Numbered from the stretch's first letter, positions 3,803 to 46,024 are shown. The stretch is DNA of 64,000 nucleotides from a candidate division WOR-3 bacterium (GCA_039804105.1 JBDRZU010000002.1:358117-422116), one strand, 5' to 3'. Notes: generated from the letters alone by a model not told the origin. Numbers and translations are program-made.

Positions 3803-4816
3803 ATGAAAGGGATAATTTTATCAGGTTTTAGGCCAACAGGTAAAGTTCACATAGGAAATTTAAAAGGTGCTCTTGAAAACTGGGTGAATTTGCAGGATGA
3901 ATATACCTGTTTTTTTGAGATTGCCGACTGGCATCTTTTAACAACATCCTATGATGATGTAAATTCCATACAGGAAAACATTTTCCAGATGGTTGTTGAT
4001 TGGCTTGCAGCAGGGATCGATCCAAAAAAATCAACAATCTTTGTTCAATCATCAGTTAAAGAACATTCCGAACTTTATCTACTTTTTTCGATGATAACCC
4101 CATTATCATGGCTATACAGAAACCCAACATTAAAAGAACAGATAAGGGATCTTGAGATGACTTCTGAAAACAATTATGGACTTTTAGGATACCCAGTTTT
4201 ACAGGCAGCTGATATTTTATGTTACAAGGCAACCGCTGTTCCTGTTGGGGAAGATCAACTTCCACATCTTGAACTCACGCGAGAGATCGCAAGAAGGTTT
4301 AACAATCTTTACAAAGAAATCTTTCCTGAACCAAAATCGTTGATCACACAATTTCCAAGGGTTTTAGGGATAGATGGTAAAAAAATGTCAAAATCTTTAA
4401 ACAACGCTATATACATTGCGGATTCTGAAGAAGAGATTAAAAGAAAGGTAAAACTTTCAATTACGGATACTACAAAGATAAGAAAAAATGATCCTGGACA
4501 TCCTGATATCTGTAACATATTCTCCTACCATAAAATTTTTAATCTAACAGAAACAGAACAAATTAAAAACTCATGCGAAAAAGGCGATCTAGGTTGTGTT
4601 GATTGTAAAAATAGTTGTGCTGAAAAGATTATCGAATATTTAAAACCTTTACAGGAAAAAAGAAAAATCTTTGAAAGTGATCCAGATACAATTTATGATA
4701 TATTGGAAAATGGCAGCAAAAAAGCACAAACGATAGCGAAAAAAACTTTAAATGAGGTCAATGAAAGTATGAATTTAATAATAAACAGGAGGTTTTATGA
4801 TAAAACTTCACTATAA
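3803..4816 (+). CDS. trpS: tryptophan--tRNA ligase
   Basis: SGFRPTG-HIGN, YPVLQAADI, VPVGEDQ and KMSKS motifs. Confidence 0.97.
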   Translation: MKGIILSGFRPTGKVHIGNLKGALENWVNLQDEYTCFFEIADWHLLTTSYDDVNSIQENIFQMVVDWLAAGIDPKKSTIFVQSSVKEHSELYLLFSMITPLSWLYRNPTLKEQIRDLEMTSENNYGLLGYPVLQAADILCYKATAVPVGEDQLPHLELTREIARRFNNLYKEIFPEPKSLITQFPRVLGIDGKKMSKSLNNAIYIADSEEEIKRKVKLSITDTTKIRKNDPGHPDICNIFSYHKIFNLTETEQIKNSCEKGDLGCVDCKNSCAEKIIEYLKPLQEKRKIFESDPDTIYDILENGSKKAQTIAKKTLNEVNESMNLIINRRFYDKTSL

Positions 4817-5930
4817 CTACAAAGATCTCTTCAGATGTACAAGATTGGGACTATCGATCAAAAAGATGTTCGTTATGTTGTCAGCGATTTCTCTTGGGGC
4901 TTTAGTCTATACAATTTTTAGTTATCTTGCCTTCATAACAAACGGAACATCTTTCAAAACAATATGGGAAACATATAAATTTATCCCTGTACCGGTAATT
5001 GGTGTAACAACACTTGCATGGTATTCATGGTTAATCTGGATAATCGGAGTTGTTTTGTATTTTATATTTTTCATCTATGCACAAACTGCTGTCACAAAGA
5101 TCACTTTTGAGCAACTTAAAGGAAACGAATTCTATGAGATGAAAGAATCTTTAAAATACGCTTCCAAATTCTGGAAATCTTCTTTTCTCGCTCCCGTAAC
5201 ACTTTTAATACTAATCGTTTTCATGTTCATAGGTGCTTTCATTTTTGGTTTGATCGGAAGGATCCCATATTTCGGACCACTTTTCATAATACTTTTAATA
5301 GTTCCTATAATTTTTGGAGCGGTTTTTACAGTTTATCTGATAATAATTTTCTTTGTTTCACTTTTCATATCACCAGCGGTAGCTGGAACATCAAAATCTG
5401 ATACTTTTGATACACTATTTGAAATATTCTCTCTCGTATGGGATCATCCATGGAGACTTGTGGTTTGGGGCGGCTTAGTTGGTATAATGTCAACACTCGG
5501 GGGAGTGATACTTGGAATAATTTTAAAATATTCATTTGAACTCACAAGATGGGCACTATCCGTTTGGAACAATGGTTCATGGCTTAAAATTTGGTCAAAC
5601 GGTTTTTATTTCCTTCCTCCAGTCCCCGCATACGATTTTGCTGAAAAAATCGCTTCATATACAACACCATTCCTTTTCTCAATACATAACTTTACACCAG
5701 GTAACTGGGCAATAAATCTTTCTTCGTTCCTTTTTGGTATTCTACTTTATATTGCAGGTTTCACAGTAATTTCTTATATACTTGTTTGCTGGACTGCAGG
5801 ATTAACAATAATGTATGTTAACCTTGTAAAAATGAAAGATGATGTTAACCTTCTTGAAGAAAAAGATGAAGAGTTTGACGAAATAGAAGAAGAGGAAAAA
5901 GAGGAAAACAAAGAGGAGAAAAAAGAATAA
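4797..5930 (+). CDS. polytopic membrane protein of unknown function with an acidic tail
   Basis: 377 aa, about 6-7 TM helices, AGGAGG SD. Confidence 0.7.
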   Translation: MIKLHYNYKDLFRCTRLGLSIKKMFVMLSAISLGALVYTIFSYLAFITNGTSFKTIWETYKFIPVPVIGVTTLAWYSWLIWIIGVVLYFIFFIYAQTAVTKITFEQLKGNEFYEMKESLKYASKFWKSSFLAPVTLLILIVFMFIGAFIFGLIGRIPYFGPLFIILLIVPIIFGAVFTVYLIIIFFVSLFISPAVAGTSKSDTFDTLFEIFSLVWDHPWRLVVWGGLVGIMSTLGGVILGIILKYSFELTRWALSVWNNGSWLKIWSNGFYFLPPVPAYDFAEKIASYTTPFLFSIHNFTPGNWAINLSSFLFGILLYIAGFTVISYILVCWTAGLTIMYVNLVKMKDDVNLLEEKDEEFDEIEEEEKEENKEEKKE

Positions 5931-33504: not shown

Positions 33505-34738
33505 ATTTGAAGATAAAATCACTCTTTGAAAACATTGAAGGAAAATTTTTATAGGACTTTATTCCAAGGATAAGAGTTCGTATGTTATCAACATAGGTTA
33601 AATAATTTTCCAATTTTGCAGGATCTATCGAAACATTCTTTTCGTTTTTAATCTTTAAAGGATTTATAAACTTGTCATTTTTTTTCACCGCAAAATGTAG
33701 ATGGTATCCTGTTGCATAACCTGTTTTTCCAACATAACCTATAACTTCACCCTGTTTCACAAACTTCCCAACCTTGATATCTTTCGCATACGAATGAAGA
33801 TGACAGTACTCACTCTGATATCCATTTTCATGATCTATTCTTACCGTTTTTCCACCGATATAGTTGTATCCAACAAAAATTATATAACCATCTGTAGCAG
33901 CGTACACAGGAGTTTTCTTTGGAGCAGAATAATCAACAGCATAATGGGGAATGTATCTTTTTAAAATCGGATGATACCTTTTCGAAGTGAAAGTGGATGA
34001 TATTCTGTAATAGGTTGCAAGAGGTGATTTTAAAAATGTTCCTTCAAGAGAGTTGCCATTCTGATCGTAATAAATCTTTCCATTTCCATCATCATACAAA
34101 AATGCTTCATACAGATTCTCATCGTTTTCAAAAGATGCGTATATTATATCTCCATACTGATAGAATTCATCATCTATATATTTTTTTTCAAAAAGTATTA
34201 CAAATTTATCACCCTTTTTTACTTCTGAAAAGACATCTAATCTCCAGTCAAAGATTTTTGTAAATTTCAAAGCCAATTTTTCAGTTTCACCTTTTTGTTT
34301 GATAGCATTTACAATGTTATCCTCAACTTCACCCTCTATAAACTCTATAGAAACAGTTGGCTCATTGCTTAAAATATAAGAATTATATTTTGAAGTATAT
34401 TCAACGATGTATGTTTTTGAGAGATCATTTTTGTATTCAAGCCTTCTAAAGTTAAAATTTTCATCAGTAAAAATGAATATCTGATCATTTACATCAATTT
34501 TTTTGGGAGGATAAATTTTAGAAAAATATTTTATTATGGAATCGATAACATCATTTTTAAGATGAGATCTTCTTAAGATACCAATAAAAGTTTCTCCTTT
34601 GGTGAATTCATATTTTACACCAACATAATCTTTTCTTTGATTTTCAACATCTTTTGTTATCTCACCTTTTAGAAACTTTACATAAACAAAAGATGTCAGC
34701 AGAAAAATTAAAAATGAAAGATAGAAAATCTTCTTCAA
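33470..34738 (-). CDS. M23 peptidoglycan DD-endopeptidase (MepM/Csd3-like)
   Basis: RYHPIL, HYAVD (HxxxD), YCHL and TGYHLHF (HxH) motifs. Confidence 0.88.
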   Translation of the reverse strand: MKKIFYLSFLIFLLTSFVYVKFLKGEITKDVENQRKDYVGVKYEFTKGETFIGILRRSHLKNDVIDSIIKYFSKIYPPKKIDVNDQIFIFTDENFNFRRLEYKNDLSKTYIVEYTSKYNSYILSNEPTVSIEFIEGEVEDNIVNAIKQKGETEKLALKFTKIFDWRLDVFSEVKKGDKFVILFEKKYIDDEFYQYGDIIYASFENDENLYEAFLYDDGNGKIYYDQNGNSLEGTFLKSPLATYYRISSTFTSKRYHPILKRYIPHYAVDYSAPKKTPVYAATDGYIIFVGYNYIGGKTVRIDHENGYQSEYCHLHSYAKDIKVGKFVKQGEVIGYVGKTGYATGYHLHFAVKKNDKFINPLKIKNEKNVSIDPAKLENYLTYVDNIRTLILGIKSYKNFPSMFSKSDFIFKYANTLSKSPNI

Positions 34739-35589
34739 TCTTTTAAACCACTCCTTGAATAACTTTCTATTATCTGTCTCTGAGCGATGAAAAACATTAT
34801 GATAAGTGGTAAAACCACAAATGTTGATGCAGCCATAAGTAAGGTATAATTTGTTGATTGTTCCTGAATAAAATACGCGAGTCCAACCTGAACCGGTCTT
34901 ATTGAATCAGAGTTTGTCACAACAAGTGGCCAGATAAAAGAATTCCATGAAGAGAGAATTGAAAATATCGATATAGTTGTTAAAGCTGGCTTTGAAAGGG
35001 GAACTACAACTTTAAACAAAAAACCGATATCAGAGTATCCATCAATCACAGCAGCATCATAAAGATCCCTTGGTATAGTTTTGAAATGTTGTCTTAAAAG
35101 GAAAATTGAGAAAACATTTGCCATCCATGGTACAATCTGAGCATAGTAAGTATCAATCCACCCCATCTTTTGCAAAATCATATACCCTGGAACTATGTAA
35201 ACAGGCATAGGAATCATCATAAGACCAAGTAAAGAAACAAAAAGAATCTCACGACCTTTAAAATCCAGTCTTGCAAAAGCATAAGCAGCAAGTATCGATG
35301 TGAAGAGTGTTCCAGCAAGTTGCGCAAGAGCGATAAAGATAGTATTCAGAAAATATCTTGTAAAATTAACCTTGTTCCATGCTGTAACATAATTTTTCAG
35401 TTGGGGATTTTTGGGTAAGATGGATGGTGGAAATTTAACAGCTTCAACAGGAGTTTTCAAAGATGTTGAAACCATCCAGAAAAATGGGAAAAGTATCGTT
35501 AACGCAATAATGATAAGAATAAGATAGGTAAAAAGCATTGAAAAATTTATTTTTTTTACTCTATTCATAAAAGACATTTTTTTCTCCAT
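34735..35589 (-). CDS. carbohydrate ABC transporter permease
   Basis: PFFWMVSTSLK, DAAVIDG (EAA-like loop) and WNSFIWP motifs. Confidence 0.9.
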   Translation of the reverse strand: MEKKMSFMNRVKKINFSMLFTYLILIIIALTILFPFFWMVSTSLKTPVEAVKFPPSILPKNPQLKNYVTAWNKVNFTRYFLNTIFIALAQLAGTLFTSILAAYAFARLDFKGREILFVSLLGLMMIPMPVYIVPGYMILQKMGWIDTYYAQIVPWMANVFSIFLLRQHFKTIPRDLYDAAVIDGYSDIGFLFKVVVPLSKPALTTISIFSILSSWNSFIWPLVVTNSDSIRPVQVGLAYFIQEQSTNYTLLMAASTFVVLPLIIMFFIAQRQIIESYSRSGLKD

Positions 35590-36499
35590 ATTTTTTCTGA
35601 ACTATAGTTAAAAAAAGTATTATCAAAAATAGAATAAAAGCTATAGCCGTGCCATAACCATACTTTCCATAGTTGAACGCCATATCGTAAAGATAATAAA
35701 CGATTACATTAGTCGTTCCAAGAGGTCCACCAGCGGGAGGTCCAGTCATCATCCATACTGGAGCGAAAACCTGAAAACTTGTTATCGTTGTCATTATAAA
35801 AACATAGAAAGTTGTTGGGGAAAGTAATGGTAATGTTATATGCCTGAAAGTTTGCCATTTTGATGCTCCATCAATTTTTGCTGATTCATAGTAATGTTCT
35901 GGTATATTCTGGAGTCCAGCAAGAAAAATGATCACATTGTATCCTATCGATTTCCAGATTGTCATGATTGATAAAGAAAAAAGAGCGAGAGAGGGACCTT
36001 CAAGAATCTTTGGTAGGTCGGTTTGAAAAATCATTTCAAAGATTCCCCTTGGTTCTTCAAGCCATTTTAATGGTGACATTCCAAGAGATGTCAGAATATA
36101 GTTAGCGATACCTATCTTTGGATGGTATATCCATTTCCATACAAAGGATATCGCAATTATCGATGTAACTTCTGGTAAAAAGTATGTTGTTCTGAAAAAT
36201 CCTTTAAATTTTATTTTTTGGTTTAAAAGAATTGCGATAAACATTGAGATGATGATAGTTCCTGGCAGAACCATTATAACATACCAGAGTGTATTCAATA
36301 ATGACTGGTAAAATTTTTCATCCTTAAAAATTTCCAGATAGTTTCCAAAACCAACAAAAGATCCTTTTCCAGCGATTCCCCAATTAAAAAAACTAATAAA
36401 AAAAGATAAGATTATAGGAAAAAACCTGAAAACAAGAAGAATTATTAGTGCAGGGGATAAAAAAAGGATTGCTTTAAAAAATTTTTTTCTTTCGTTCAT
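35561..36499 (-). CDS. carbohydrate ABC transporter permease
   Basis: FVGFGNY, GLQNIP..YESAKIDGA and SFQVF motifs; start taken at ATG 36499. Confidence 0.9.
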   Translation of the reverse strand: MNERKKFFKAILFLSPALIILLVFRFFPIILSFFISFFNWGIAGKGSFVGFGNYLEIFKDEKFYQSLLNTLWYVIMVLPGTIIISMFIAILLNQKIKFKGFFRTTYFLPEVTSIIAISFVWKWIYHPKIGIANYILTSLGMSPLKWLEEPRGIFEMIFQTDLPKILEGPSLALFSLSIMTIWKSIGYNVIIFLAGLQNIPEHYYESAKIDGASKWQTFRHITLPLLSPTTFYVFIMTTITSFQVFAPVWMMTGPPAGGPLGTTNVIVYYLYDMAFNYGKYGYGTAIAFILFLIILFLTIVQKKYGEKNVFYE

Positions 36500-36510
36500 A
36501 TTATATTTAG

Positions 36511-36538
36511 ATTTTATATTATCGAAACTTTTTGTCAA
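36511..36538 (-). promoter_or_regulatory. predicted promoter TTGACA-N16-TAAAAT for the permease operon
   Basis: Motif on the minus strand, very short leader. Confidence 0.6.
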
Positions 36539-36546
36539 CATTCTGG

Positions 36547-36575
36547 TTGACAAAATTTTATTGTATATATAGAAT
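36547..36575 (+). promoter_or_regulatory. predicted promoter TTGACA-N17-TAGAAT for the M20 peptidase
   Basis: Motif divergent from the previous promoter. Confidence 0.55.
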
Positions 36576-36603
36576 AGTTTTGTCAAATTAAAAAGGAGTG
36601 TTT

Positions 36604-37836: not shown

Positions 37837-39912
37837 TTGGCTGATATTAAAACAAATGACATCAGAAACATAGCAATCGTTGGACACAACGGAGCAGGTA
37901 AAACAAGTTTTGGTGAAACTATACTTTTTAATACAGGTTTCACAACAAGGTTGAATAAGGTTGATGAAAAAAATTCTATGCTTGACTATACAGATGAGGA
38001 AATGGCAAGAAGTATAACAATAGGACTCAAACTTGCGACCGTAAAATGGCAGGATAAAACTATCAATTTCATCGATACTCCCGGTTTCGTTGATTTCTTT
38101 GGTGAGGTTATATCAGCTTCAAAAGTTGTAGAATCTTTCATTTTTATTATCGATGGTTCAACCGGAGTAGATCTTGGAACTGAAAATGCGTGGGAATTGA
38201 GAAAGAAAGAAAAACTTGCAGGACTTTTTGTTATCAATAAGATGAAAAGAGAAAATGTTGATTATGAGAAAGTTTTTCAGGAAATAAAAAATTCACTCTC
38301 AGAAAGTGCAACCCTGATCCAACTTCCAATAGGAAGTGGGCCAAATTTTAAAGGAGTAGTTGATCTTATCACCGGTAAAGCATACATTTACGAGAATGGT
38401 AAAAAAAGTGAAACTCAGGTTCCAGGGGATATTAAAGATTTTGTTGAAAAGATGAAAAAAGAACTACTTGAACAGATTGCTTCATCCGATGAAACATTGA
38501 TGGAGAAGTTTTTCTCTGATAGTTTGTCTCAGGAAGACATAAATACTGGATTTTTAAACGCAATAAAAAATGGAACACTCTATCCTGTATGTTTTACAGA
38601 TTCTGTTGAAAACATTGGCGCTGATCTTGTGCTTGATTATATAATAAAATATCTTCCTTCCCCAGCAGACCTTAATATCAGAAGACCTCTTGAATCTGAA
38701 ACTTATCCTGAAAAGCCCGATCAGAATTCTCCTTTTGCAGGTTTTGTTTTTAAAACAAATGTTGAAAAACACTTGGGTGACATAAACTTTGTCAGGGTAT
38801 TTTCAGGTGTTTTGAAATCAGGGAGTGAAATTTACAACAGTTCAAAAAATGTCACCGAGAAGGTCAACCAGATGTATATAAACATTGGAAAAGAGAGAAA
38901 AGAGATAGATGAATTGACAACAGGAATGATAGGGGTTTTGGTAAAATTAAAATCAACAAAAACTTCTGATACAATATGTGATAAATCAATTAACATTAAA
39001 TTCCCACCTATAGAATTTCCTCATGCGAACGTTTCAATGGCGATAATTCCTCTTGCAAAAGGTGATGAAGAAAAAATTTCTAACGGATTATCAAAATTAC
39101 ATGAAGAGGATCCATCATTCTACTTTAAGTTTGACCCTGAAATCAAACAAACACTCATTCATGGACTTGGAACGATCCATCTTGAAGTTATAATAAACAA
39201 ATTAAAAGAAAAATTTGGAGTGAATGTTAATCTTGAAAAACCAAGGATCAAATACAGAGAAACGATTAAAAAGACAGCATCAGCAGAAGGAAAACATAAA
39301 AAACAATCTGGTGGAAGAGGACAGTTCGGTGTGTGTAATGTTAAATTTGAACCACTCCCAAGAGGAACTGGATTCCAGTTTGTTGATGAAATTTTTGGTG
39401 GTGCGATACCAGCAAAATTTGTCCCATCTGTTGAAAAAGGGATAAAGGATGCACTTGAAAAAGGAGTTGTTGCAGGTTATCCAATAGTTGATGTAAAAGC
39501 GGTCCTTTTTGATGGAAAATACCACGATGTTGATTCATCCGATATAGCGTTCCAGATCGCTGGATCACTTGCAGTAAAAGGTGCAATACCACAAGCAGAT
39601 CCTGTAATCCTTGAACCCATAATGAATGTTGAAATAACTGTCCCAGAAGAGTATATGGGTGATATCATGGGCGATATCAATGCCAGAAGGGGAAAAATTC
39701 TTGGAACAGAGCATGCTGGAAGATACCAAAAGATAAAAGCGTTGATACCTGAGGCTGAAATGTATCAATACTCTTCACAACTCAGATCGATGACACAGGG
39801 TAGAGGTACATTTAAGATGGAATTTGAGACATACGAAGAAGTTCCAAGAGAAAAGGTTGCGAAGATTATTGAGGAAGCGAAAAGATTTCAAGAGGAACAA
39901 CAGGAAAAATGA
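37837..39912 (+). CDS. fusA: elongation factor G paralogue (EF-G2 type)
   Basis: GHNGAGKT, DTPGF, KQSGGRGQFG, HDVDSS and LRSMTQGRG motifs; stand-alone, outside the str operon. Confidence 0.88.
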   Translation: MADIKTNDIRNIAIVGHNGAGKTSFGETILFNTGFTTRLNKVDEKNSMLDYTDEEMARSITIGLKLATVKWQDKTINFIDTPGFVDFFGEVISASKVVESFIFIIDGSTGVDLGTENAWELRKKEKLAGLFVINKMKRENVDYEKVFQEIKNSLSESATLIQLPIGSGPNFKGVVDLITGKAYIYENGKKSETQVPGDIKDFVEKMKKELLEQIASSDETLMEKFFSDSLSQEDINTGFLNAIKNGTLYPVCFTDSVENIGADLVLDYIIKYLPSPADLNIRRPLESETYPEKPDQNSPFAGFVFKTNVEKHLGDINFVRVFSGVLKSGSEIYNSSKNVTEKVNQMYINIGKERKEIDELTTGMIGVLVKLKSTKTSDTICDKSINIKFPPIEFPHANVSMAIIPLAKGDEEKISNGLSKLHEEDPSFYFKFDPEIKQTLIHGLGTIHLEVIINKLKEKFGVNVNLEKPRIKYRETIKKTASAEGKHKKQSGGRGQFGVCNVKFEPLPRGTGFQFVDEIFGGAIPAKFVPSVEKGIKDALEKGVVAGYPIVDVKAVLFDGKYHDVDSSDIAFQIAGSLAVKGAIPQADPVILEPIMNVEITVPEEYMGDIMGDINARRGKILGTEHAGRYQKIKALIPEAEMYQYSSQLRSMTQGRGTFKMEFETYEEVPREKVAKIIEEAKRFQEEQQEK

Positions 39913-40263
39913 TCATTTCAGATCATATCTGTTTTCAATATACTGTTTAAAATCCTTTAATCCTTCAGAAAATTTGATGAAGAGAGCATCAAGAGTGCTC
40001 TCTTCATCCTGTAATATTCTGTTTTTACCAAAAAGTTCAATCTTTTTGGCAAGTTCCATAAGATCAAAAAGATTAAAATTCCCAACAACACTTTTGAATG
40101 CATGCGACTGTTTTGCAATCTGTTCAAAATTTCGTTCTTTTATTGCCTTTTCAAGCAAAGGAAATCTCTGATTATAATCGAATACAAACGCTTTCAAAAT
40201 ATCCTTAAAATCATCGGAGTCCTTTCCAAAAAGTTCTTCAAGTGATGAAAGATCGTAATCCAT
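39913..40263 (-). CDS. stand-alone Hpt (histidine phosphotransfer) protein
   Basis: SHAFKSVVGNF (HxxKS) four-helix pattern. Confidence 0.75.
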   Translation of the reverse strand: MDYDLSSLEELFGKDSDDFKDILKAFVFDYNQRFPLLEKAIKERNFEQIAKQSHAFKSVVGNFNLFDLMELAKKIELFGKNRILQDEESTLDALFIKFSEGLKDFKQYIENRYDLK

Positions 40264-40267
40264 AAAT

Positions 40268-42379
40268 TTATGGTTTAAACCTGTAAGGTATCGTTGTCTT
40301 CATTTCTGCTGGAACTCCATCGATTGTTCCAGGATTGAATACAGCTTTGTATGCTGCTTCAACTGCTGCATTATCACATGCAGGGTTTAAGGATTTTATA
40401 ACCTTTGCTGAAACAACTTTTCCATCCTTACCAACAACGACCTCAACAAAAACTGTTCCTTCAGCACCTATCTTTCTTGCTGCTTCAGGATATGCTGGTT
40501 GAATAATCTGTTTTGGTGTTGGTTGTATCACAACAGAAGGTTTCTTTTCCTCTTCTTTTTTTACAGTATCAACTGTCTGCTGCTGTTGCTGTTGTTGAAC
40601 CTGCTGTGAAAGTAGTTGTGATGCTGTTGGAGTTTTTACCTGTGTTTCCTCTTTAGGTTTTGCTTCCTCTTTTACCTCTTTTTTAACATTTTTATTGGTT
40701 TCAACAGTTTTTGTTTCCGTTGTCTTGATGGTTTCTTCAACTTTTGGTGCAGGGAAAAGCAAAGCAAAATCTATTTTCTTCTGATTCTGTTTCTCCACAT
40801 AGAATATGTCAAGATTTGAAATCGGCTCAATATTCGAAGAGTAAACATTATCAAACGATTTCAAAACATTGTTCGCTACGATAACCCTGTTTGGAACAAA
40901 AAGGAAAGCATAAGGTTGATCATCAACGATTATCTGTTGGAACTCTTTCCAGTAATTTCTTGCTTCTTCTTTATCCATAGTTGTCATCGCAAGGTTAACA
41001 ATAGAATCAACCTTTGGATTTCTGTAATCAACAAAGTTAAACCTACCTGTCTCTTTTACTGAAGACCAGAAAGGTAGTGGATTGAAATCTTCGTTTACCT
41101 GCCATGAGAGTATATAAAGATCATAATCCTTCGAAAAGAGTTTCAAAATCAAGGAATCAGATGGTAACTCTTTTAAGTTAACATTCAAACCAGCATTTTT
41201 CAATTGATTCGTTACCTCTCGTGCAACTTTTACGATCATCACATCATTCTTATCAGTTATGATATTTAAAACGAATGGTTTGTTGTTGTAGAGGTATCCT
41301 TTTATAGGATCCTTTTTCAAAACCTTTTCGACAAGTTTTATTCCATCTTTGTTGTAAGCAACAGGTTTAATATCTTCAGAATAAGCCCAGAATGATGGAG
41401 TTATTGGACCGTTAGCAGGTATACCATTTTTTATTGTATTCTTTATCAAAAGATCTCTGTTTATAAGTTGTGAAACACCTACTCTGAAATCCTTTGAGTC
41501 AAACGGTTTTCTTGAAAGGTTGAATCCTATATATGTATATATGTTTCCTTTCTTCTGAATTCCTGTTACATTTTTTAACTTTGCTATCTCCTCTATGTTA
41601 TCAGGTGTTATATCATAAACAAGATCAAGTTTTCCCTCTTTAAGATCGTTAATAATCGATTGTTGGTCAGTGTATATTCTATAAACGATTTTATCTATGA
41701 ACGGTTTATCTTCCAGAGAATAATTTTCATTTTTAACGAGTGATACATATTTTCCATTTTCCCATTTTTCGAGTTTGTATGGCCCATTTCCAACAGGTCT
41801 TGTATTAAAATCTGAATACTGTATCTGATTCTTTTCCTTTTCAAGCAAATGTTTTGGAAGTGGTTTTATATTTGAATCAAAAAGTGCCATCGGATAAACT
41901 TTGTTACAATAAAAAACGATTTTATCATCCGATAATACCTTAACAGAATCTATATTCTGTAATTTTGTAAATAGTGGAGAATTGTTCTTTGGATCCTTAA
42001 TAAGGTTGAATGTAAATTCAACATCATACGCTGTTACAGGTTGACCATCCTGCCAGACAACATCCTTTCTGAGATAGTATGTTATCTTTTTCAAATCTTC
42101 TGAATATTCCCAAGAAGTTGCAAGCATTGGAACTATGTTTCCATTGATATCATTTTTATGAAGTGGAAGAAAGAGCATGTCAACTATTTCGTTATGTGCT
42201 ATGAATGATGGATAAATCGGTGAAAGGTTTTCGGGTTCTCCTACTATTCCAACAACTATCTCTCCTCCTGGTTCTCCAACCTGTGGTAATCTTGATATCT
42301 TTTTTTCACATGAAACAATTAGAATTATCGCCAATAAGATAAGAGCTATTTTAGATATTTTAGAAAATTGCCTCATCAA
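40268..42379 (-). CDS. peptide/nickel ABC substrate-binding lipoprotein (family 5) fused to a C-terminal TonB domain
   Basis: Lipobox IVSC; LRKDVVWQDGQPVTAYDV and PVGNGPY motifs; K/E/Q linker; PAYPEAARKIGAEGTVFVEVVVGKDGKV...F.PG..DG. Confidence 0.85.
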   Translation of the reverse strand: MMRQFSKISKIALILLAIILIVSCEKKISRLPQVGEPGGEIVVGIVGEPENLSPIYPSFIAHNEIVDMLFLPLHKNDINGNIVPMLATSWEYSEDLKKITYYLRKDVVWQDGQPVTAYDVEFTFNLIKDPKNNSPLFTKLQNIDSVKVLSDDKIVFYCNKVYPMALFDSNIKPLPKHLLEKEKNQIQYSDFNTRPVGNGPYKLEKWENGKYVSLVKNENYSLEDKPFIDKIVYRIYTDQQSIINDLKEGKLDLVYDITPDNIEEIAKLKNVTGIQKKGNIYTYIGFNLSRKPFDSKDFRVGVSQLINRDLLIKNTIKNGIPANGPITPSFWAYSEDIKPVAYNKDGIKLVEKVLKKDPIKGYLYNNKPFVLNIITDKNDVMIVKVAREVTNQLKNAGLNVNLKELPSDSLILKLFSKDYDLYILSWQVNEDFNPLPFWSSVKETGRFNFVDYRNPKVDSIVNLAMTTMDKEEARNYWKEFQQIIVDDQPYAFLFVPNRVIVANNVLKSFDNVYSSNIEPISNLDIFYVEKQNQKKIDFALLFPAPKVEETIKTTETKTVETNKNVKKEVKEEAKPKEETQVKTPTASQLLSQQVQQQQQQQTVDTVKKEEEKKPSVVIQPTPKQIIQPAYPEAARKIGAEGTVFVEVVVGKDGKVVSAKVIKSLNPACDNAAVEAAYKAVFNPGTIDGVPAEMKTTIPYRFKP

Positions 42380-42426
42380 TCCTCCTTTTATTTATTTAAA
42401 GATTATTATTTAAAATTTTGAATTTG

Positions 42427-43674
42427 TCAACCTGTTTGATTTTCTCCTGAAAGAGTTTGATCTATTATCATTTCAAGTTTATCTCCCAAACTCTGTTCAG
42501 AATAAAATTTTAAAATATAATCTCTCCCTCTTTTTCCCATCTCCTCCCTTTCTGATTTAGGCATATTGAATACTTTCATAATTATTGAAACGATTTCATC
42601 AAGATTTTCAGGATCAGCATAGAATCCACATCCAGAGTCTTTAACAAACTCTGAATATTCTGGTTTCGCTGTAATAAGAATCGGTTTCCCTGCAAGCATA
42701 TAGTCAAAAAGTTTGTTCGGACTTAATCCGTATTTGTAAAGTTCAGTTTTGTTAACTGTGATCAAACAAAGATCAACATTAGCAAGAAAATTTAAAATGT
42801 TTCTTTTCGGTATAGTTTTATATATTCTAACATTTTTTATTTTTTCATTCTCAATTCTTTTTTCAATATCTTCTCTTAAAGGCCCCTCTCCGAGTATTAA
42901 GAAATCTATCGGTTTATTTTCAAGTTTTTTGGCAATATCTAATATAAGATAAGGGTTGTTCGCAACACCTATCGCCCCCGTGTAAGCAACTGTAAATTTA
43001 TCGATTTTATATTTTTCTTTGTAAAACTCTTTTGGTTTATCGGGTGTAAAATGGTTTGGATATGTGCAATTCGATATAAAGTGTATTTTCTTTTCATCTA
43101 TGCCTTTTGAAACTATATGGTTTTTAAACTTTTCAACACAGACAATTATACTTTTACTTTTTTGATAAATTATTTTTTCCAGAAGATATAAAAACCATGT
43201 GTAAGGATTATTTTTCATCTCTGGTTTAAGTTGTATTAACGATTCAGGCCAGAGATCAAGTATATCTGATATGAATGGTTTTTTCAACTTTATCGACAGA
43301 AAAAGTGCGGATAGTGCTGTGATCAATTGTGGAGAAACCCCAATTATTATATCTGGCTTTTCGAGTATCCTTCCAACTCTGTACATTTCAACAGAAAAAA
43401 TTATCTGGTTTAACAATCTCTGTAAATCATTTTTTTTGTATGTGAAAGTTTTGACCCAGACAAAATTCACTCCGTTAATATTTTCGATTTTATAATACTC
43501 ATCCTTAGCGAGTTTCATATGCTGGAGTTTATGAACATTAAAATCGGACGAGATTATATAAACCTTATAACCTCTTTTTACAAGCTCGATTCCAAAATCA
43601 AGATGTCTTGTTCCACCTGTCATCTCATAGGTATGCGCATTCTGATAACATATCCAGATAACTTTCCTTTTCGT
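42427..43674 (-). CDS. GT4 glycosyltransferase (WbuB-like); apparent ACG start codon
   Basis: GGTRH, DLWPES, YTGAIG and SPNKLFDYMLAGKP motifs; the SD and N-terminal strand KVIWIC lie upstream of the first ATG (43623). Confidence 0.85.
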   Translation of the reverse strand, partial: TKRKVIWICYQNAHTYEMTGGTRHLDFGIELVKRGYKVYIISSDFNVHKLQHMKLAKDEYYKIENINGVNFVWVKTFTYKKNDLQRLLNQIIFSVEMYRVGRILEKPDIIIGVSPQLITALSALFLSIKLKKPFISDILDLWPESLIQLKPEMKNNPYTWFLYLLEKIIYQKSKSIIVCVEKFKNHIVSKGIDEKKIHFISNCTYPNHFTPDKPKEFYKEKYKIDKFTVAYTGAIGVANNPYLILDIAKKLENKPIDFLILGEGPLREDIEKRIENEKIKNVRIYKTIPKRNILNFLANVDLCLITVNKTELYKYGLSPNKLFDYMLAGKPILITAKPEYSEFVKDSGCGFYADPENLDEIVSIIMKVFNMPKSEREEMGKRGRDYILKFYSEQSLGDKLEMIIDQTLSGENQTG

Positions 43675-44384: not shown

Positions 44385-45338
44385 ATGAATCGTTTAAAAA
44401 ATATAAAGTTTTTTATAATTTTGCAGATAATTTTCTTTTTAAACATAAACGGATCGAATATATTAACTGATTTTTTGTTTTCGAAATCATCGAATGTTGG
44501 ATTTTCAATTCTTAAAATAACTCCTGATGCATTTTCATCAGCACTTTCTGGAGGTGTAACTACTGGTTATAACTCTCCCTCTTCATTTCTTATAAATCCA
44601 GCATCTTCATCATTCTATAAAGAAAAAGGAATGGTAGTTTCAACGATTTACTCGTCTGGATTTTCAAATATCTATTCTGGAGCGATAAAATATCCTTTTT
44701 TCTTTGGAACATTTTCTTTTTCAGCAACTTCTTCAATATCGGATACAATTCAATTAAGAAATGAAGATCCTACTGAAAATCCTCTTGGATATTACAGATT
44801 CAACTCATATTCTTTTTCGCTTGGTTATTCAAACACTATAACGGAAGGGATTTTTGTTGGTTTATCATCCTCAGCGATAAATGAAAATTCTTTTCTGTTA
44901 AATAAAACTTCTTTTGTCGCAAGTGCTGGAGTTTTATTGGTCTTTGAACGATTTTTTAATTTTAAAGTTGGTGTATCCACTTTGAATGTTGGGTTTAAAA
45001 CGAGGTATGACCCAACTTCACTCGATTATATTATACCACCTTTTACTTTAAAAATTGGAAGTTCTTTCGATATAAAAATAAATGAAAATTTTACAAACAC
45101 GATATTCTCAGATTTCACAAAAGTGAATGATCAGGAGTTCAAGATATCTTTTGGATACGACGGAGAAATTTTGAAAACACTCTCGTTAAGAATAGGTTTT
45201 CTGATAAACGATCCTACAAAATTTTTATCTTTTGGAATCGGTGTTAGAAACAATAGTTTGTCTTTAAACTATTCTTTTGTTCCTTTCAACTATGGGCTTG
45301 GTTTTGAAAACTGTGTGAGTTTAAATTATAACTTTTAG
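44385..45338 (+). CDS. PorV/PorQ-like outer-membrane beta-barrel
   Basis: FSILKITPDAFSSALSG...INPAS N-terminal motif, NVG strand, C-terminal YNF. Confidence 0.65.
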   Translation: MNRLKNIKFFIILQIIFFLNINGSNILTDFLFSKSSNVGFSILKITPDAFSSALSGGVTTGYNSPSSFLINPASSSFYKEKGMVVSTIYSSGFSNIYSGAIKYPFFFGTFSFSATSSISDTIQLRNEDPTENPLGYYRFNSYSFSLGYSNTITEGIFVGLSSSAINENSFLLNKTSFVASAGVLLVFERFFNFKVGVSTLNVGFKTRYDPTSLDYIIPPFTLKIGSSFDIKINENFTNTIFSDFTKVNDQEFKISFGYDGEILKTLSLRIGFLINDPTKFLSFGIGVRNNSLSLNYSFVPFNYGLGFENCVSLNYNF

Positions 45339-45346
45339 GTGGAATA

Positions 45347-46024
45347 ATGGCAGGTCTACAGGGAAGTTTAAAAGATTTTGAAATCACAGATATACTCCAA
45401 CTGATAAACATGAATAAAAAGGACGGTTGTCTTGAAATAACAACAAAAGATAGTGTTGGAAGGATTTATTTTGAGGGAGGAAGTGTTACCCATGCAGAAA
45501 TAGATGATAGATTTGGAGAGAGTGCTATACATCAAATACTTGTTATAAACGATGGCAGCTTTAAATTCATTCCGGATGTAAAAACACCACGAAATACGAT
45601 AAGTTTACCAATACATCATTTGATGCTTGAAGCAGCGCGAAGTATTGATGAATGGAAACAGATCGAAAAACTTATACCTTCGTTAGATCTTGTTGTAAAG
45701 GTTGTCGAAAATCCAGATATCGACACTGACAACATAAAACTCTCAAGCGAAGAATGGAAGATGTTGACATTCGTTGACAATGTTTCAACGATAAAAGAGA
45801 TAGCAAAAAAGGTTAACCAATCTGAGTTTCAAACAGCAAAGACCATCTATGGTCTCATAACTAGTGGGCTTATAACTGTTGAGGAAAAAGAGGGACTCGA
45901 TGATATTTTAAAAGAAATAGATGCACAGATAACCGATGAAAAAAATGATAATGAAAATAAAAAGGATGAAAAAGTTGATGATAACAATAAAAAGGGTGGG
46001 ATAAAAAAATTCTTTTCAAGATAA
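45347..46024 (+). CDS. DUF4388-domain protein
   Basis: LQGSLKDFEITDILQLI..NKKDG.L and LMLEAARSIDEW motifs. Confidence 0.85.
   Translation: MAGLQGSLKDFEITDILQLINMNKKDGCLEITTKDSVGRIYFEGGSVTHAEIDDRFGESAIHQILVINDGSFKFIPDVKTPRNTISLPIHHLMLEAARSIDEWKQIEKLIPSLDLVVKVVENPDIDTDNIKLSSEEWKMLTFVDNVSTIKEIAKKVNQSEFQTAKTIYGLITSGLITVEEKEGLDDILKEIDAQITDEKNDNENKKDEKVDDNNKKGGIKKFFSR

Follow-up and report, generated by a model that had tools for sequence, protein, structure and literature searches.

A solute-binding lipoprotein fused to a TonB domain

We analyzed a 64,000-nucleotide stretch of DNA (hereafter the window) from a candidate division WOR-3 bacterium (GCA_039804105.1 JBDRZU010000002.1:358117-422116), with attention to one gene that encodes a predicted lipoprotein in which a family-5 ATP-binding cassette (ABC) solute-binding domain is fused to a TonB C-terminal domain. 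The order along the chain is signal peptide with lipobox, binding domain, disordered linker and TonB C-terminal domain (TonB_C). The gene and its parts are as follows.

40268..42379, minus strand: fusion lipoprotein, 703 codons (702 from the likelier ATG at 42376), a single open frame by translation
42308..42379, minus strand: lipoprotein signal peptide and lipobox Cys24 (IVS-C24), lipidation predicted
40745..42292, minus strand: complete family-5 (cluster C) solute-binding domain, AppA-like, residues about 30-545 (Pfam, structure model, Foldseek)
40538..40744, minus strand: disordered linker rich in K, E, T and Q, residues 546-614 (model and composition)
40598..40627, minus strand: conserved short helix motif TASQLLSQQV within the linker, family pattern small-E-x-[LI]-L (alignment and model)
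40577..40597, minus strand: run of seven Gln, kept in close relatives only (sequence and alignment)
40271..40525, minus strand: TonB_C, residues 619-703, with YP motif at 630-631 and last strand intact (Pfam, TIGRFAM, model)
42381..42387, minus strand: Shine-Dalgarno-like AAGGAGG (sequence)
42402..42430, minus strand: candidate sigma-70-like promoter, TTGACA-17-AATAAT, 11 of 12 matching, 23 bases 5' of the frame (motif match)

Two starts are available, ATG 42376 and TTG 42379; the ATG is likelier because GGAGG (42381-42385) sits 4 bases from it and 1 base from the TTG, and because the Atlas record of the fusion starts at residue 2. Promoter-like matches in the upstream region are not above chance (21, compared with 19.6 +/- 4.2 in shuffled sequence). 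In a 62-row family alignment the lipobox column holds Cys in 61 rows, the remaining row starting late, and Asp is found at +2 in 0 of 61. An AlphaFold2 model built with 62 sequences shows both domains folded and the linker disordered, with a mean predicted local distance difference test score (pLDDT) of 84.2 and a predicted template modelling score (pTM) of 0.68.

An assembly chimera was rejected as an explanation. The stretch 40456-40861, which reaches from the interior of TonB_C through the linker into the binding domain, is bridged with 0 differences by a contig that comes from a second study (run X3); run X1, a possible source of the window, was left out of the read and contig support. Homologues of residues 500-703 carry both SBP_bac_5 and TonB_C in 13 of 13 cases, and full-length fusions recur across the phylum, as described below. 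An earlier note made from the DNA alone (the original prediction) had described a single frame comprising a lipobox, a complete family-5 binding protein, a linker and TonB_C, and had named 40500-40800 as the region in need of independent support. The frame, the Pfam and TIGRFAM matches, the model and the bridging contig confirm that observation as a whole; the function that the prediction proposed is partly supported.

The C-terminal domain has a TonB fold and may dock on TonB boxes

Residues 627-702 match TonB_C (PF03544) with 68.4 bits (cut-off 24.6), and the fusion matches TIGR01352 with 56.9 bits (cut-off 27.1). A structure search with the C-terminal 124 residues listed TonB-family chains at ranks 1-16 (9dc4_T, E 2e-5; 6i97_D, E 4e-5) and TolA chains from rank 17 only. 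With both family cut-offs passed and TonB outranking TolA, the domain is a genuine TonB fold, as had been predicted. Within the 62 rows its YP motif is nearly invariant (Y630 in 61, P631 in 62), and section 5 of bioRxiv 10.1101/2023.07.07.548152 describes this motif as important for TonB. The mean share of the majority residue is 0.57 in TonB_C, 0.54 and 0.49 in the binding domain and 0.28 in the linker.

Six loci of genus g17 (L075, L093, L094, L095, L098, L103) carry, immediately 5' of the fusion, a gene for a canonical, transmembrane-anchored TonB. The TonB_C of these fusions is 61-66% identical to the neighbouring canonical TonB, compared with 29-37% to that of four other fusions of family f11, and their binding domains are 56-65% identical to those of the same four. 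The simplest reading of these identities is that TonB_C was exchanged with the canonical TonB domain while the fusion itself was retained. Such an exchange suggests that the fusion has the same targets as canonical TonB.

We also predicted a complex between fusion residues 608-703 and the N-terminal 216 residues of a 1050-residue TonB-dependent transporter encoded in the same genome, together with 3 controls. The pair scored 0.44 and the best control 0.00, with contact agreement between runs of at least 45% and partner pLDDT of at least 79; the prediction returned no interface. The mark applied to this score is passed by 116 of 157 solved pairs and 2 of 215 mismatched pairs, and both of those mismatched pairs, along with 18 of the 157 solved ones, lie between the mark and 0.60. 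Because solved TonB-transporter complexes exist, passing the mark may stem from likeness to them, and we treat the prediction as weak support for docking. The original prediction had the TonB domain docking the binding protein on TonB boxes. From its YP motif, the g17 exchange and the 0.44 against 0.00, the domain looks competent for this, and docking is plausible.

The binding domain is AppA-like and its cargo is probably peptides

SBP_bac_5 (PF00496) matches residues 81-440 with 263 bits (cut-off 32.4). Foldseek with the whole model ranked Bacillus subtilis AppA first and Campylobacter jejuni NikZ next (target template modelling score 0.78-0.88 for the top four), and a family profile again gave AppA as best match (E 9e-106), followed by two NikZ proteins. 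A single-sequence search of the PDB returned NikZ at the top. MppA fell far below AppA in both sequence and structure rankings. D168 of the fusion, present in 47 of 62 rows, aligns with AppA chain position 154, and position 382, which is Arg in 37 of these rows, Lys in 6 and Ile in the window protein, aligns with AppA chain position 373; we take both AppA positions to be holders of the peptide ends.

The closest unfused relatives (29-32% identity) belong to Acidobacteriota and Planctomycetota and lie upstream of oppB-like permease genes in six of the loci opened, and unfused relatives from Latescibacterota stand alone without permease genes beside them. Judged by this kinship, the domain is a descendant of importer-linked binding proteins. 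Peptides would then be the likeliest cargo by descent, and the family of the window protein may have shifted in specificity relative to peptide binders.

Nickel was considered as a ligand and rejected. Nickel binding by NikZ (4oet/4oeu) involves a double-His prong and Arg344 on the ligand carboxylate (bioRxiv 10.1101/2022.10.03.510666). His62 of the fusion aligns with NikZ His26 and is present in 11 of 62 rows; the prong, His480-His481, is missing in 62 of 62 rows, and the window protein also lacks the equivalent of Arg344. Genes resembling nikR and larC/B/E follow the fusion in genus g17 alone (7 of 61 loci).

A conserved helix motif lies in a variable linker

The linker had been described as about 75 residues long with poly-Gln. 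The glutamine run stands but is local to close relatives, and the disordered linker has 69 residues (K14, E12, T11, Q11). Over 62 family rows linker length ranges from 63 to 106 residues (median 77.5), and the sequence is unconserved apart from the helix motif, in which L590 is found in 61 of 62 rows. The motif pattern, written post hoc from the alignment, occurs in 56 of 62 linkers compared with 8.1 in shuffles, and text resembling it is visible in the distant fusions P0052-P0055. AlphaFold2 predicts a single helix in the linker, at residues 586-605. In a model of the C-terminal 124 residues this helix (pLDDT 54) does not pack against TonB_C, which makes it a candidate contact for a separate partner; we consider it the best candidate contact for a partner that would unload the binding domain.

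The fusion appears to be ancestral and vertically inherited

We surveyed 220 genomes from the window's phylum, representing 42 families. Full-length fusions in one frame (668-737 codons) are present in 77 genomes, and 8 more carry a version shortened mostly by contig ends; the carriers fall in 14 families, and no fusion was found in the other 28 of 42. All 60 loci that were translated along with the window end in the TonB domain. Searches beyond the phylum drew on the best 150, 120 and 80 matches. A profile search of 1.84 billion representatives placed 16 full-length fusions on top and unfused binding proteins below them, and a second search found both domains in 68 of the best 120 matches. 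Among the matches listed, named fusion members belong to WOR-3 or TA06, save single records labelled Cloacimonadota, Bacteroidales, Acetofilamentum and Pacearchaeota, which we took for loosely labelled bins; fusions of independent origin may occur outside WOR-3 and TA06. The ESM Atlas yielded only plain SBP_bac_5 clusters.

On an RpoB tree of 50 genomes, which excludes G019 on account of a gene divided between two contigs, the fusion is found in each of the three main branches and changes state 6 times, the direction of the changes being deduced from midpoint rooting. When a tree is built from the binding domain by itself, the families group much as they do with RpoB. These patterns suggest that the fusion is ancestral, was inherited vertically as a single copy and was lost repeatedly.

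Most carriers lack a cognate importer

The genome containing the window (1.81 Mb, 2 contigs) is rated 85% complete. It encodes only two SBP_bac_5 proteins, the fusion and a chemoreceptor with a C-terminal SBP_bac_5 domain (MCP-SBP_bac_5). Searches of this genome returned no oligo_HPY signature, no match to six OppB/OppC queries by blastp and tblastn, and no OPT or PTR2 (POT) carrier; its four BPD_transp_1 proteins are PstC/PstA and a UgpA/UgpE-like pair. A motif-based list of ATPases was incomplete, having missed two LolD-like proteins, and the importer argument is based on oligo_HPY and tblastn. Over the 220 genomes, oligo_HPY exceeded its cut-off in 23 and OppC_N in 11, and 66 of the 77 genomes with a full-length fusion have neither. 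Opp-type operons were opened in 4 of the 11 other carriers, and all four include their own binding protein. No OppB/C homologue lies in any of 61 fusion neighbourhoods, covering up to 8 kb per side.

The original prediction had the docked protein passing its substrate directly to an ABC importer, and this part of it fails: with Opp signatures missing in most carriers, hand-off cannot be the general function. Direct transfer from an outer-membrane transporter to an Opp/Dpp/Nik importer would fit the importer-linked ancestry of the binding domain and the oligo_HPY ATPases of 14 of the 85 genomes with a whole or contig-cut gene. The remaining 71, including relatives that are 99-100% complete, have no such ATPase, the inspected Opp operons supply themselves, and there is no correlation on the tree (of 5 pairs, 0.3 changed the same way, 0.2 the opposite way and 4.5 not at all). 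We regard hand-off as largely refuted for most carriers and as improbable overall.

One candidate partner was found near the gene.

34735-36586, minus strand: UgpA/UgpE-like permease pair, sugar-type, 3.7 kb downstream of the fusion on the same strand (similarity)

The prediction that nothing import-related adjoins the fusion holds for Opp permeases, exbB/D and TonB-dependent receptors and is qualified by this pair. We rejected the pair as an orphan partner, having looked at its distribution in 24 carrier genomes, since it has its own binding lipoprotein and ATPase. These are distant, a family-1 binding lipoprotein at C1:685989-687245 and a MalK-like ATPase at C1:172547-173614, so that permeases, binding protein and ATPase form a scattered ABC importer.

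The fusion may catch cargo at TonB-dependent transporters

The genome also encodes a conventional Ton system. An exbB-exbD-exbD-tonB operon lies elsewhere, and its TonB is a transmembrane protein of 205 residues. There are four plug-domain TonB-dependent transporters, the largest of 1050 residues; this one has a TonB-box-like strand between an N-terminal extension and the plug, conserved in 20 homologues. A TonB_C match besides the fusion was present in 21 of 21 carrier genomes examined. Of the four, the 1050-residue family was profiled, and it was rejected as a specific partner, occurring in 48 of 51 genomes whether or not they carry the fusion.

TonB and TolA are coupled to their motors by a His in the membrane helix (section 8 of PMC12204202). 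No motor-type His lies within the hydrophobic part of the fusion's signal in any of 62 rows, His being found at residue 2 alone, in two rows, and exbBD lies within 8 kb of the fusion at 1 of 61 loci. Together with the near-universal lipobox Cys and the separate TonB-ExbBD operon, this bears out the expectation that cleavage of the lipoprotein signal would leave no TonB-type membrane anchor. By these features the fusion would be a TonB docking domain without being a TonB energy transducer. An unorthodox transducer, in which the signal stays uncleaved or the linker motif engages ExbD and the fusion itself pulls plugs open, would find some encouragement in a linker as long as a TonB spacer and in the uncharacterised TonB homologues with extra domains reported in bioRxiv 10.1101/2023.07.07.548152. 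The lipobox, the missing His and the scarcity of exbBD nearby all speak against it, as does the bulky binding domain placed between anchor and linker, and we find it barely credible.

We favor, with a probability of roughly 45%, the reading that the fusion is a lipid-anchored, motor-independent catcher on TonB-dependent transporters. By holding on to the TonB box of a TonB-dependent transporter in the outer membrane, TonB_C would park the binding domain at the transporter's periplasmic exit. The normal TonB-ExbBD complex would open the plug, and the binding domain would trap incoming cargo, probably peptides. Since OppBCDF is not the unloader in most carriers, the catcher might hold cargo, as a buffer or sink, on which periplasmic enzymes or another carrier would draw. 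We infer the lipidation, the membrane side, the contact with the TonB box and the ligand.

Several points weigh against this reading. No unloading partner was found, with OppB/C, oligo_HPY, OPT and PTR2 absent from the searches of the 85%-complete genome. Just 7 of 61 loci have a TonB-dependent transporter within 8 kb, and no transporter gene travels with the fusion. The cleft varies: of the 62 rows, 37 have Arg and 6 have Lys at the equivalent of NikZ Arg344, and the window protein has Ile. Finally, work with TonB fragments in Escherichia coli indicates that a motorless TonB domain should contend with real TonB for the box, a cost that the catcher reading has to bear.

That last point could itself be the function, with a motorless TonB_C acting as a brake on import by blocking TonB boxes against real TonB and with ligand or linker helix as the switch. 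A competent-looking TonB_C without motor anchor, a conserved helix suited to a regulatory contact, and a single-copy gene with its own promoter-like site would all suit a brake. The single-chain model, however, offers no hint of a docked, switchable state (pTM 0.68, linker disordered, helix unpacked at pLDDT 54), and a floppy linker of 63-106 residues would be a poor relay of conformational change. A brake seems to us quite unlikely.

Other loci of note lie in the window and genome. At C1:737091-746798 (minus strand), a duplicated set of four uncharacterised membrane proteins lies just upstream of a DUF4388 gene and exbB-exbD-exbD-tonB, flanked by glycine-cleavage-like and lipoate-ligase-like genes; the gene preceding the set we take to be glutamate-mutase-L-like. 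At C1:1376477-1380978 (plus strand; L188:1978-6476), genes for a TonB-dependent transporter, an ABC_sub_bind protein and a HAMP-MCP receptor stand in a row with no permease, as a module that would lead from transporter to chemoreceptor. Window positions 44385-46024 (plus strand) encode a PorV/PorQ-family protein followed by a DUF4388 protein, and further PorV-like and Por_Secre_tail proteins adjoin the 1050-residue transporter (L187).

Co-occurrence with a chemoreceptor is a lead, not evidence for one pathway

The second SBP_bac_5 protein of the genome is a 1112-residue chemoreceptor in which two MCPsignal stretches are followed by an SBP_bac_5 domain at the C-terminus (C1:768968-772306, minus strand; L185:9972-13307). 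Its gene heads a cluster of cheW-cheY-cheA-cheC, TPR, DUF4388 and three roadblock genes. The receptor is present in 79 of the 220 genomes: fusion and receptor occur together in 74, the fusion alone in 11, the receptor alone in 5 (4 of which are 67-78% complete) and neither in 130. On the RpoB tree, kinship leaves 5 independent pairs, of which 3.3 changed the same way and 0 the opposite way (median p 0.25), so that the co-occurrence is not significant. A motif scan and reading of the genome further turned up genes for a type IV pilus and MglA/MglB-like genes.

Genes after the fusion add a second signalling thread.

39913..40263, minus strand: stand-alone Hpt phosphotransfer protein, starting 4 bases past the fusion stop (Pfam; its link to the fusion is a candidate)

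The Hpt gene accompanies the fusion at 7 of 61 loci, all in family f1. Elsewhere the fusion is followed by a response regulator-PglZ gene in 9 loci and by the kinase of the same pair in 11.

These associations raise the possibility of a sensor arm, in which the fusion would signal transporter occupancy or a periplasmic ligand alongside cytoplasmic MCP-SBP_bac_5, Che proteins, MglAB and the type IV pilus. Shared presence in 74 genomes, a genome in which fusion and receptor are the only two SBP_bac_5 proteins, and the Hpt, response regulator and kinase genes would fit such an arm, and family-5 binding proteins stimulate chemoreceptors elsewhere (tables of PMC8050422). It is weakened by the small number of independent pairs, by retention of the fusion in three carriers without any CheW (G147, G143 and G189, one of them a single contig), and by the lack of a visible signal peptide or membrane segment in the receptor, which would place it in a different compartment from the fusion. 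We consider a sensor arm unlikely, and the co-occurrence a lead rather than evidence that both proteins act in one pathway.

A broader conjecture, which we rate as rather unlikely, joins these threads. WOR-3 may have an importer-free Ton branch, in which an ancestral ABC binding protein lost its permease and, by way of a TonB domain without power of its own, came to read which outer-membrane transporters are loaded. The linker helix would pass cargo or signal on to a partner, and the same partner would feed the pilus-steering MCP-SBP_bac_5 receptor.

Separately, two loci with MglA-like GTPases amount to a Myxococcus-like polarity kit in WOR-3 (C2:302525-318874 and C1:628698-631493). One carries cheB/cheD/cheR, DUF4388, pilT-like and pilMNOPQ genes, and the other mglB and a membrane chemoreceptor.

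Known systems resemble the fusion in part

With TonB (PF03544, TIGR01352; TonB-FoxA 6i97, TonB-BtuB 2gsk, TonB-TbpA 9dc4) the fusion shares the C-terminal fold, the YP motif, the last strand and a long low-complexity spacer. Unlike TonB, it lacks an uncleaved transmembrane helix and motor His, carries a lipobox and a 520-residue binding domain, and is not encoded with exbBD, the normal TonB being separate. With AppA (1xoc), its best match, and the Opp/Dpp family-5 lipoproteins it shares the whole cluster C fold and a lipoprotein signal; unlike them, it has no permease or ATPase in its operon and mostly none in the genome, and it has gained a linker and a TonB domain. Its binding domain places it in family 5, but it is no subunit of an Opp/Dpp/Nik importer.

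The E. coli proteins FhuD and BtuF are cluster A-type binding proteins. Contact between TonB and binding proteins has precedent in the FhuD and BtuF work as cited in PMC3813593, where, as in the fusion, a binding protein is linked to TonB near an outer-membrane transporter. Those systems comprise two proteins, a powered TonB and a cognate ABC importer, whereas the fusion is one chain of family 5 with neither motor anchor nor importer. By analogy, the fusion may work most like the TonB-FhuD and TonB-BtuF pairs.

TonB_C is also appended to other domains in Bacteroides TonB homologues with M56 peptidase, CarboxypepD_reg, DUF4488 or double TonB_C, which are described as uncharacterised in bioRxiv 10.1101/2023.07.07.548152; none of the 11 B. 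thetaiotaomicron proteins listed there has a family-5 binding domain. A further protein, P0104, has 643 residues, with five TonB C-terminal repeats after a signal-like N-terminus. In the literature searched, which covers few subscription journals, we found no paper on a TonB_C and SBP_bac_5 architecture or on WOR-3 with TonB. The text searched in PMC12204202 does not mention WOR-3 or solute or substrate binding, and that searched in PMC8050422 does not mention TonB.

The architecture is thus undescribed in the searchable literature and is built from two known parts; databases already annotate it automatically as 'TonB family protein', which lessens the surprise. As far as is known, TonB domains function only when coupled to ExbBD, and family-5 binding proteins only alongside a permease or a receptor. 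The fusion breaks both rules in one protein that appears to have passed vertically through the three main branches of the phylum sample. It would be a natural one-chain version of the debated scaffold between TonB and binding proteins such as FhuD and BtuF, an idea that a single soluble construct would suffice to test, and it suggests a periplasmic route for cargo or signal without Opp, OPT or POT carriers.

Neighbouring genes vary by lineage

The fusion's neighbours are lineage-specific housekeeping and envelope genes. Upstream, separate lineages have an M23 peptidase (8 loci) and GT2, LPG-synthase-like, UDP-glucose dehydrogenase and epimerase genes (14-15 loci), and the window locus has a GT4 gene. 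This setting, with vertical single-copy inheritance, is what might be expected of an envelope tether or wall-peptide binder that holds murein peptides on the binding domain and an outer-membrane barrel on TonB_C. MppA is a known murein-peptide binder, and its distance from AppA in our rankings argues against such a role, as do the 28 of 42 families in which no gene was found. Wall binders with an OmpA domain occur in 51 of 52 genomes, and the window's genome has four, leaving no gap to fill. A tether is accordingly very unlikely, and a replacement for Pal/OmpA was rejected on the same OmpA count.

A Bacteroidetes-type surface export signal (K-D/E-D/E) follows the Cys in 13 of 61 sequences, not including the window protein, and was also rejected. 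A membrane protein of about 400 residues lies beside the fusion at 9 of 61 loci; we rejected it as a partner because its presence in 211 of 220 genomes is not specific. It represents a near-universal WOR-3 family of 380-430 residues, multi-pass with a charged tail and without Pfam match (L050:6432-7742), whose copy in the window genome lies at C2:362913-364046 (window about 4797-5930, plus strand). Past the Hpt gene, an Elongation factor G-like gene (window 37837-39912, plus strand), probably of EF-G2 type to judge from its divergent G1 motif, converges on the fusion in family f1, and the Hpt gene itself contains a hairpin of 13 pairs with a T run at 39976-40008.

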